This document shows positions 6,408 to 7,957 of a DNA stretch of 64,000 nucleotides, piece after piece. Position 1 is the first letter of the stretch; each line of letters begins with the position of its first letter. The notes under the pieces are model-generated. The model was not told the origin of the DNA and ran no database searches. It was given only the letters and a program-made list of their open reading frames with translations. The position numbers were made by a program, and so were the translations under genes. The stretch is from an uncultured Candidatus Saccharibacteria bacterium (lineage in GTDB: Bacteria; Patescibacteriota; Minisyncoccia; UBA9983): the NCBI GenBank assembly GCA_964456855.1, contig CAYWCU010000001.1:8442-72441 (forward strand). Direction: 5' to 3'.

Positions 6408-7957
6408 AGAGTTTGATCCTAGCTCAGGATGAACGCTGGCGGCGTGATTTAGGCATGCAAGTCGAGCGCCCAGCCGTAATTTTGTATCGGAGTTTTTGAG
6501 TGTTTCTTCCTCTGAAGATATTTCAGAGTAGTGAGGATAACATCAACTCGGTTGTAAAATTACGGCTGGGAGCGGCGAACGAGGTAGTAACACGTAGGAA
6601 CCTGCCCCCAAGACAGGAATAACTACGGGAAACCGTAGCTAATACCTGATAGTTCCCCGCTAAAAGCGGGGATAAAGATTTATCGCTTGAGGATGGGCCT
6701 GCGCGCTATCAGCTTGTTGGTAAGGTAACGGCTTACCAAGGCTATGACGGCTAGGGGGGGTGAGAGCCCGGTCCCCACCGATGGCACTGAGACACGGGCC
6801 ATACATCTACGGATGGCAGCAGTCAAGAGTCTTCCACAATGGGCGAAAGCCTGATGGAGCGACGCCGCGTGCAGGATGAAGCCCTTCGGGGTGTAAACTG
6901 CTTTTATGGGTGAAAAATTTCGATGATATTAACCCAAGAATAAGGGGTTGCTAAACTCGTGCCAGCAGCAGCGGTAATACGAGTACCCCAAGCGTTATCC
7001 GGATTTATTGGGCGTAAAGGGTGTGTAGGGGGCAATGTTAGTCTTGCTTTAAAAATTCCGGCTTAACCGGAAAGATGGGCAAGAAACGGCATAGCTTTGA
7101 GGATGTGAGAGGTCTGCGGAACTCATGGTGTAGGGGTGAAATCCGTTGATATCATGGGGAACACCGAAGGCGAAGGCAGCAGACTGGCGTATTCCTGACC
7201 CTGAAACACGAAAGCGTGGGTAGCGAAGAGGATTAGATACCCTCGTAGTCCACGCCCTAAACGATGTTCACTGGCTTTTCCAAGTATCGACCCTTGGAGA
7301 GGCGAAGCTAACGCGTTAAGTGAACCGCCTGGGAAGTACGGCCGCAAGGCTAAAACTCAAAGGAATAGACGGGGACTTGCACAAGCGGTGGATCATGTGG
7401 TTTAATTCGAGGCTACACGAAGAACCTTACCAGGGCTTGAAATCCAGACGACGGTTTTCTGAAAGGAAAACTTTCTCACAAGGACGGCTGGACAGGTGAT
7501 GCATGGCTGTCGTCAGTTCGTGATTTGAATTGTTCCCTTAAGTGGGGTAACGAACGCAACCCTCGTTGTCTGTTACAAGTGTCAGGCGAGACTGCCCCGT
7601 TATACGGGGAGGAAGGAGAGGATGACGCCAAGTCAGCATGTCCCTTTGACGCCCTGGGCTACACACATGATACAATGGCGCGCACAATGGGCCGCGAAAG
7701 AGTAATCTGGAGCAAATCCCACCAAAGCGCGTCTCAGTTCGGATTGAGGTCTGCAACTCGACCTCATGAAGTTGGAATCGCTAGTAATCGCGGGTCAGCT
7801 ATACCGCGGTGAATACGTTCTCAAGTCTTGTACTCACTGCCCGTCAAGTCAAGGAAGCCGGGAGTACCCGAAACCCCTGAATTTCAGGGTCTAAGGTAAA
7901 TTCGGTGACAGGGACTAAGTCGTAACAAGGCACGGCTAGCGGAAGCTGGTCGTGGAT
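6408..7957 (+). rRNA. rrs: 16S ribosomal RNA (divergent; expanded V1 hairpin; atypical 3-prime terminus)
   Basis: Starts AGAGTTTGATCCTAGCTCAGGATGAACGCTGGCGGCG and ends near AAGTCGTAACAAGG...GGAAGCTGGTCGTGGAT. It contains GTGCCAGCAGCAGCGGTAATAC (a 515 site variant) and GTACTCACTGCCCGTCA. Confidence 0.9.

Follow-up and report, generated by a model that had tools for sequence, protein, structure and literature searches.

The 64 kb window analysed here (the whole stretch, positions 8,442–72,441 of contig CAYWCU010000001.1) contains a full-length 16S rRNA gene at 6401–7967 on the forward strand (Rfam RF00177, 1400.3 bits against a threshold of 50, model positions 1–1533), and our subject is the 3′ end of this gene, which has no CCUCC anti-Shine–Dalgarno (anti-SD) sequence. 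The gene is a genuine bacterial 16S rRNA gene of the Paceibacteria/Parcubacteria type. A first-pass annotation of the window had placed it at 6408–7957, which was essentially right. Its claim that CCUCC is missing from the 3′ end also held when put to a covariance-model alignment, the analysis named beforehand as a possible refutation: the model placed no canonical anti-SD. In that alignment helix 45 (7931–7954) is intact, reading CACGGCUAG-CGGAAG-CUGGUCGUG with a GGAA loop and standard pairs throughout. Beyond the helix, in the 3′ part of the alignment, the model tail GGAUcACCUCCUUu is matched to the gene's GGAUUAAAUCCAAA at the top posterior probability ('*'), and GGAUUAAAUCCAAA occupies the place of GGAUCACCUCCUUU. 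The 13-nt tail past helix 45 (7955–7967, + strand) reads GAUUAAAUCCAAA instead of GAUCACCUCCUUU; the position of the anti-SD core is taken by AAUCC (7960–7964), and CCUCC is absent from the tail. The CCUCC tail is conserved in most bacterial 16S genes and is not required for a sequence to qualify as small-subunit (SSU) rRNA.

The same tail is present in other assemblies. The window 16S is ∼95–97% identical to the 16S of L063/L103, which are the GenBank and JGI contigs of a metagenome-assembled genome (MAG) labelled Campbellbacteria, and to that of L104. The tail GGATTAAATCCAAATCAATTTTT recurs in L063/L103 and also in L104 and L105, the JGI and ENA assemblies of a third organism; L063/L103 and L104/L105 are separate assemblies from separate samples. 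Among these genus-level relatives the 23-nt tail is invariant. The closest 16S genes belong to MAGs labelled Campbellbacteria, Yonathbacteria, Vogelbacteria, Liptonbacteria and Paceibacterota, the nearest public relative being a MAG labelled Candidatus Campbellbacteria, and the gene content is typical of the Candidate Phyla Radiation (CPR).

The 16S gene is unlinked to 23S and tRNA-Ile, with its own predicted promoter and its own predicted terminator, which bears out the unlinked operon of the first-pass annotation. Neither a 23S nor a 5S gene was found by Rfam in the 64 kb, where the only matches above the gathering score besides the 16S are nine tRNA genes. A putative sigma-70-type promoter (TTGACT-17-TATACT, 6121–6149, + strand; 10/12 in the consensus scan) lies just past an upstream terminator-like hairpin at 6101–6130. 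At the other end of the unit, the terminator scan identified an intrinsic terminator (8155–8182, + strand), a bidirectional hairpin with a T run after its 12-bp stem; at the corresponding place in L063 the hairpin is a different one. The tRNA-Ile(GAT) gene (8458–8532, + strand; ARAGORN and Rfam) has a separate putative promoter, TTGCAA-16-TGnTATGAT (8340–8367, + strand; 9/12 in the consensus scan plus the TG extension). Its encoded CCA ends on the A (8532) of the ATG of an MscS-like gene, a one-base overlap (..GCGCA-CCA-TG, 8530–8534), and 3′ processing of the tRNA would leave the MscS-like mRNA leaderless or even 5′-trimmed.

Between the 16S gene and its terminator, the 3′ trailer (7968–8131, + strand) contains small hairpins and no CCUCC, and ends in the arm of a processing stem (8103–8131). 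The opposite arm is in the 5′ leader (6271–6299, + strand), where a 29-nt inverted repeat is 90% complementary to 8103–8131, and the extended leader–trailer duplex (6248–6400 with 8015–8157, ΔG −80.6 kcal/mol) is presumably the usual pre-rRNA processing stem. Over the ∼170 nt that follow helix 45 the trailer does not differ from that of L063, and it remains near-identical up to ∼8135, although the 16S bodies themselves differ by ∼4–5%. This near-perfect conservation is attributed to the pairing with the leader; a functional 3′ extension was considered and rejected, since leader pairing is the simpler account. The trailer hairpin at 8035–8059, with loop (G)AGCCUUAAAU, recurs in L078, L088 and possibly L005 with different stem sequences (for example, GGUCUU/AAGACC versus CGUCUC/GAGACG), and looks like a conserved pre-rRNA spacer element.

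Tails of related 16S genes

The distribution of the missing CCUCC is clade-wide. Of the related Patescibacteria, 77 species have a tail that could be read; only five of these tails are canonical (GATCACCTCCTTTCT) and six near-canonical, leaving 66 without CCUCC. The largest group is a sister clade of 42 species (e.g. L002, L013, L016, L019 and L025, with Liptonbacteria and Paceibacterota labels), which share the tail GA[U/A]CAAUUAAA[C/U]U, near-invariant across deep divergence; this tail is clearly under selection. It ceases to be conserved ∼16 nt past helix 45, suggesting that the mature 16S has a 3′ end of normal length. A motif complementary to the CAAUUAAA-type tail is not enriched upstream of genes in that clade. 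The window's own clade has variable A/U-rich tails, for example GAUUAUUUCAAG, GAAUAUUUUCCAAC and GAUUAAAUCCAAA. On a rough neighbour-joining tree the canonical-tail species are placed between clades without CCUCC, a placement indicating that the anti-SD was probably lost more than once, with at least two or three separate losses on this tree.

The first-pass annotation had left two explanations for the missing CCUCC open, the first of which was an assembly artefact. In its wider form, this explanation attributes the tail to faulty assembly or binning, or to a 16S gene that is decaying into a pseudogene. The assembly is of metagenome type, the exact proteins of the window occur on metagenome contigs, and 16S regions are prone to chimeric assembly. 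However, the same tail and trailer are replicated in the independent assemblies of relatives, and 66 of the 77 species share the lack of CCUCC; the 1400-bit score, the compensated changes and the conserved promoter region, leader, trailer and terminator also argue against it. We consider this explanation effectively refuted.

The second option was unusual 3′ processing or an insertion, in which case the 3′ end would be interrupted and a true CACCUCCUUA exon would lie further downstream or elsewhere. Large insertions are indeed present in related 16S genes (L023, L047, L065, L067, L074 and L089; L093–L097). Against this, no match to GATCACCTCCTT with two or fewer mismatches occurs between the 16S gene and tRNA-Ile, and the rest of the 64 kb has seven two-mismatch matches, not above chance, leaving no candidate for a distant 3′ exon in the window. 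Nor does a CCUCC occur at a consistent position in the 320 nt past helix 45 in 24 relatives. Within that distance it was found only in L012 and L015 and is absent in this genus; the L015 copy, at +29, is inside a hairpin arm with no counterpart in this genus, and a CCUCC further downstream was rejected as the anti-SD. The trailer is already accounted for by its pairing with the leader, and the tail of the largest sister clade ceases to be conserved where a mature end of normal length would lie. An interrupted 3′ end is thus very improbable. A canonical-tail variant of this genus was also rejected, as a search of 241 million metagenome records for the helix-45 strand followed by the canonical tail gave only six sequences, all of them distant (76–78% identical).

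Taking these data together, the window organism very probably belongs to lineages that really have lost the CCUCC anti-SD.

Gene starts and Shine–Dalgarno motifs

Upstream regions were compared for ∼65 genes called in the window and ∼450 in the relatives' loci, using a simple longest-open-reading-frame (longest-ORF) caller. The majority have no Shine–Dalgarno (SD) motif, and those that do not look leaderless are mostly A-rich and SD-free. The top enriched 5-mers at −22 to −3 are TATAA, CTATA, ATAAT and TGCTA, each of them a fragment of TGnTATAAT. TAWWWT hexamers are most frequent at a gap of 6 nt before ATG, with 11 of 64 window genes flagged, and in orthologue families TGnTATAAT is followed by 6–10 nt and then ATG, as in the response-regulator cluster that includes 60197–60583 of the window (GGTTATAAT-aattat-ATG). 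In many genes, then, there is a −10 element 5–10 nt before the start codon, and we infer from this pattern, the sequence signature of leaderless mRNAs, that leaderless transcripts are made. No paper dealing with leaderless mRNAs or the use of SDs in Patescibacteria came up in full-text literature searches. A gene caller whose training relied on SD motifs will put starts in the wrong place in this lineage. Several genes with leaderless-type −10 boxes are in a complete-looking type IV pilus cluster (53600–63300, − strand), which comprises PilB-like and PilT-like ATPases, PilC, a prepilin peptidase, three N-methyl pseudopilins, PilO and a response regulator.

With the identity of the gene, its missing CCUCC, the replication of the tail across the clade and this promoter-like signature next to start codons, we propose the following account. 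The 16S would be the working gene of a Paceibacteria bacterium (Parcubacteria, CPR/Patescibacteria), transcribed as a unit by itself, between a promoter and a terminator of its own, and presumably released from the long leader–trailer stem. Translation would mostly proceed without SD pairing, many mRNAs being leaderless in appearance with a −10 box ∼6 nt before ATG. Initiation that is mostly SD-independent would make the anti-SD dispensable, and relaxed selection may then have led to its loss. Era, which recognises GAUCACCUCC (PMC10582724), is mostly absent in Paceibacteria (PMC12641178), so that one constraint on the tail is also gone; the account fits this reported loss of Era in most of the class. 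We hold the account as a whole, a genuine Paceibacteria 16S which has lost its anti-SD in an organism that makes little use of SD pairing, to be likely, with good confidence.

A minority of genes do not conform. The first-pass annotation had noted strong SD motifs at the starts at 17481, 41992 and 42546, and had called the loss of the anti-SD paradoxical for that reason; both points are borne out. GGAGG, mostly as AAGGAGG, lies 5–6 nt before the start in eight window genes, about one gene in eight. The three genes already named have it at 17470–17474 (+; 6 nt before the ATG of a 137-aa gene), 41981–41985 (+; 6 nt before the GTG of a 136-aa gene) and 42536–42540 (+; 5 nt before the ATG of an M16 peptidase gene). 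The five added here have it at 1205–1209 (−; 5 nt before the ATG of a 237-aa gene, 486–1199), 10295–10299 (−; 5 nt before the ATG of a HAD hydrolase gene, 9660–10289), 12362–12366 (−; 6 nt before the ATG of an S41 peptidase gene, 11519–12355), 18419–18423 (−; 5 nt before the ATG of a 163-aa gene, 17922–18413) and 46212–46216 (−; 6 nt before the GTG of an M42 aminopeptidase gene, 45126–46205). The products are thus a HAD hydrolase, S41, M16 and M42 peptidases, and small proteins without a Pfam match. When only called starts are counted, GGAGG at a gap of 3–10 nt was observed 6 times against ∼0.9 expected. For AAGGAGG the count is 5, where 0.09 would be expected (P = 4e-8). At the 17481 gene an extended −10 box, TGCTATAAT, is located ∼29 nt upstream, which would place the motif at 17470–17474 inside a 5′ untranslated region (UTR).

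The conservation of these motifs weighs against the account given above. In 9 of 9 orthologous upstream regions, from four relatives, GGAGG is retained at a gap of 4–7 nt and the spacer and 5′ flank differ. Upstream of the HAD gene the window reads taAGGAGGgatga, L103 tagGGAGGaataa, L104/105 aaAGGAGGcgct and L106 tagGGAGGaagga; upstream of the S41 gene the window reads aaAGGAGGtccgaa, L104/105 agAGGAGGttccag and L106 aaAGGAGGtccgaaa. In L098 the motif is kept in front of the M42 gene (tgAGGAGGaaaaATG, window caAGGAGGaagaaaGTG), where start codon, spacing and flanks have all changed, the M16 gene (aaAGGAGGtagtg, window aaAGGAGGcagtg) and the 136-aa gene (aaAGGAGGaggaag, window aaAGGAGGtaaggg), which encodes a protein of only 34% identity. 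When the window is compared with L098, only 35–75% of sampled synonymous third positions are identical (49–75% for the three enzymes), and a neutral 5-mer would often decay over such a distance. A start-anchored test of core against flank variability gave only P = 0.016, MAFFT having failed to place 1-nt indels; the motif-anchored count of 9 of 9 expresses the conservation more clearly. The motif looks like a functional SD, but one which a ribosome without CCUCC ought to be unable to read. The SDs are predicted to pair with the real tail at −3.4 to −4.7 kcal/mol, versus −11.6 to −13.7 kcal/mol with a canonical tail. Furthermore, organisms without an anti-SD are generally without SDs too (Amin et al. 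2018, PMC6107228), and the gene starts come from the simple longest-ORF caller. Our preferred account leaves the conserved, perfectly spaced GGAGG in about one gene in eight unexplained.

L103, L104 and L105 each have these SD-led genes on the same contig as the CCUCC-less 16S. AAGGAGG-type sites also occur in other CCUCC-less lineages, including L015 and L077, whose tails have no C at all. At greater distance the SD-led status of an individual gene is not conserved, since in L107 (Logan SRR22387972 contig) a HAD homologue of 52% identity has no SD motif; SD-type motifs are present there in 6 of 9 genes, four being AAGGAGG or GGAGG.

One explanation of the paradox is that a second, divergent SSU rRNA gene, or another RNA bearing CCUCC, serves the SD-led genes. 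The canonical AAGGAGG motif, its canonical spacing of 5–6 nt and its conservation in relatives speak for it, and there is a precedent in Alteromonas, a single genus that keeps two 16S types with different anti-SDs (PMC6107228). On the other side, a second near-identical 16S is unlikely, because the contigs of four assemblies (window, L103, L104 and L105) run through the 16S into unique flanks, which a repeat usually prevents. The lineage-specific 19-mer described below was found a single time on each contig, also in records whose titles call them chromosomes, and the metagenome search for a canonical tail returned the six distant sequences alone. CPR genomes are generally reported with a single rRNA copy, which we also count against a second SSU gene. 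A spurious ORF inside the 16S, used as a probe for further copies, was not on record. Within the window no CCUCC-bearing non-coding RNA is evident either, the non-coding CCTCC sites being reverse complements of SDs, segments of tRNAs or terminator loops. Hence we regard a hidden second reader of this kind as improbable.

Another explanation is that AAAUCC or the U-run of the tail has come to serve as a new anti-SD, pairing with a matching new motif upstream of genes. The 23-nt tail is invariant among genus-level relatives, and its UCC could still pair with GGA. However, pairing with the real tail is no stronger for upstream regions than for controls from inside coding sequences (mean −3.4 versus −3.7 kcal/mol), no GGAUU-type 5-mer is among those enriched, and GGATT before the start codon is not above chance. 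The AAGGAGG-type sites of L015 and L077, with their C-less tails, and the absence of any enriched complementary motif in the CAAUUAAA clade also argue against it. With neither a complementarity signal nor enriched matching 5-mers, we rejected a new SD/anti-SD pair as highly unlikely.

Several other candidates were tried and rejected. Variable region 1 (V1) of the 16S could act as a relocated anti-SD (CUUCCUCU in the window, CCCUCCUCU in L063), but L104/L105 share the tail and the SD-led genes and have a V1 of 24 nt. In a search of the window for a small RNA complementary to the tail, the only match was the tail itself. That the SD-led genes are recent foreign DNA is only partly supported: they are more GC-rich (GC at third codon positions 0.54 versus 0.43, P = 0.0007), a contrast inflated by the low-GC island at 26–34 kb, but their SDs are conserved across the genus and horizontal transfer alone is insufficient. 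No named homologue of the HAD family outside Patescibacteria was found.

There is some chance, although we think it rather a small one, that in this genus purifying selection preserves the GGAGG cores 5–6 nt before the start, alongside a sole detectable 16S without CCUCC. Were there no second SSU rRNA, the SD would have to be read without the classical anti-SD helix, the candidate reader being a protein, or a different segment of RNA, that occupies the equivalent site on the platform; alternatively, GGAGG would have some other base-specific role in these 5′ UTRs.

Three of the eight SD-led genes are found in one cluster, 41738–46775, which contains the M16 peptidase, a Cys/Met-metabolism pyridoxal-phosphate enzyme, the M42 peptidase and the 136-aa protein, has a higher GC content (0.47–0.50), and is flanked by two tRNA-Thr genes and a tRNA-Met/Asp/Met group. 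The nearest named homologues of the M42 protein are in Bipolaricaulota/Acetothermia (60–62% identity), and the cluster is probably an old horizontally acquired island. The region 26000–34000, mentioned above for its low GC content (0.30–0.37 versus ∼0.43 elsewhere), has all of its genes on the + strand and could be a foreign island of surface-polysaccharide type.

Comparison with known systems

In bacteria, translation initiation by SD:anti-SD pairing is the textbook case, and natural lineages without an anti-SD reveal the extent to which initiation can be altered. Its loss in Parcubacteria is already published and is clade-wide (PMC9297842), a point that the first-pass annotation had missed, as it had the lack of any SD in the majority of window genes. 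In that work no more than 48% of Parcubacteria had a detectable CCTCCT motif (Tsurumaki et al. 2022, RNA 28:1041; PMC9297842), and the lineages without it overlap the group without uL1. The window 16S agrees with those genes in lineage (relatives labelled Campbellbacteria, Yonathbacteria and Paceibacterota), in having no CCUCCU after helix 45, and in belonging to small CPR genomes. The paper gives only the detection rate and the uL1-less overlap, with no description of tails, and does not mention either the conserved, persisting SD-like motifs or the leaderless-type promoter signature seen here. We found no ribosomal protein gene among the 37 window ORFs scanned against Pfam, a result which covers 64 kb only and has no bearing on the whole genome.

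For the known loss, the present data are a confirmation with added anatomy, namely the sequence of the tails, the at least two or three losses on the rough tree, the stand-alone transcription unit and the leaderless signature. The more interesting part is that conserved, optimally spaced SDs persist in a minority of genes on contigs with an anti-SD-less 16S, which raises the question of whether there is a hidden second rRNA or whether SD-like leaders act without an anti-SD.

Among the anti-SD-less bacteria named in Amin et al. 2018 (PMC6107228), citing Lim et al. 2012, are some Bacteroidetes (Chryseobacterium, Elizabethkingia and Blattabacterium), Mycoplasma and Carsonella. They share with the window organism an intact helix 45, a tail of normal length without CCUCC, and a majority of genes without an SD; whereas SDs are reported absent there, a minority of genes here keep a perfect, conserved GGAGG.

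The leaderless signature has its own parallels. A −10 box a few nucleotides before the start codon, which would make SD pairing unnecessary for initiation, is also found in Deinococcus deserti (PMC4007540) and mycobacteria (PMC4633059). Mammalian mitochondria have both leaderless mRNAs and an SSU rRNA without an anti-SD (PMC10582724); in the window organism leaderless transcription is predicted from sequence alone. Deinococcus and mycobacteria keep an anti-SD for their leadered mRNAs, and in this they differ from the window organism.

Variable region 1 and primer sites

Within the body of the gene, model alignment to Rfam places an 80-nt insertion in the loop of helix 6, in V1. The resulting hairpin (6466–6573, + strand) has arms of 29 nt at 6466–6494 and 6545–6573 that are 83% complementary, and folds at −54.2 kcal/mol (z = −6.6). 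The V1 expansion described in the first-pass annotation is therefore real, and it is the sole insertion in the window 16S; it has a plain hairpin fold with no ORF inside, and is not of the intron or homing-endonuclease type. Compared with the window, L063 has an identical stem base and a diverged tip. The genus-level relative L104 has no expansion (V1 of only 24 nt), and lengths among the relatives range from 16 to 150 nt. Since V1 lengths differ within the genus and the stem base is kept as the tip diverges, V1 is best read as a fast-evolving, lineage-specific helix extension and not as an intron.

Both of the altered primer sites that had been pointed out earlier are confirmed by the sequence and the model alignment. 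The 515 site reads GTGCCAGCAGCAGCGG (6959–6974). The C-to-A change at 6970 (Escherichia coli 526) has its counterpart in G-to-U at 6949 (E. coli 505), so that the partners of the 530-loop pseudoknot (6949–6970, + strand) are UGC at 505–507 (6949–6951) and GCA at 524–526 (6968–6970). The UGC/GCA combination is found in 17 relatives, and the canonical ones have GGC/GCC. From its pairing pattern, the alteration of the 515 site is one half of a pseudoknot change that is compensated on the other side. The 1390s site, GTACTCACTGCCCGTCA (7830–7846, + strand), differs from the model consensus at 7834 and 7838, which by our own numbering correspond to E. coli A1396U and C1400U. The 19-mer GTACTCACTGCCCGTCAAG from this site matched 91 stretches in a collection of species-representative genomes. 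Of these, 88 are 16S genes, labelled nearly without exception as Patescibacteria, Paceibacterota or Parcubacteria, and the variant appears to be a clade signature. As a consequence of the changes at the 515 and 1390s sites and the V1 expansion, the lineage will be missed or mis-sized in standard amplicon surveys.

Unlinked rRNA genes and rRNA insertions have reportedly been described for CPR bacteria by Brown et al. (2015, in Nature) and Brewer et al. (2020, in ISME J). The window gene resembles these in its stand-alone 16S, in its mismatches to universal primer sites and in the expansion of a variable region. It differs from the large intron-like insertions of CPR genes in that its V1 is a short, ORF-less helix extension that is unshared even within the genus. 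Large insertions, of the type typical of CPR 16S and unlike the small V1 extension of the window, do occur in related genes: the 16S genes of L023, L047, L065, L067, L074 and L089 span 2.4–3.5 kb, L093–L097 are further examples, and in some metagenome matches an insertion is located directly before the ...AACAAGG/helix 45 junction.

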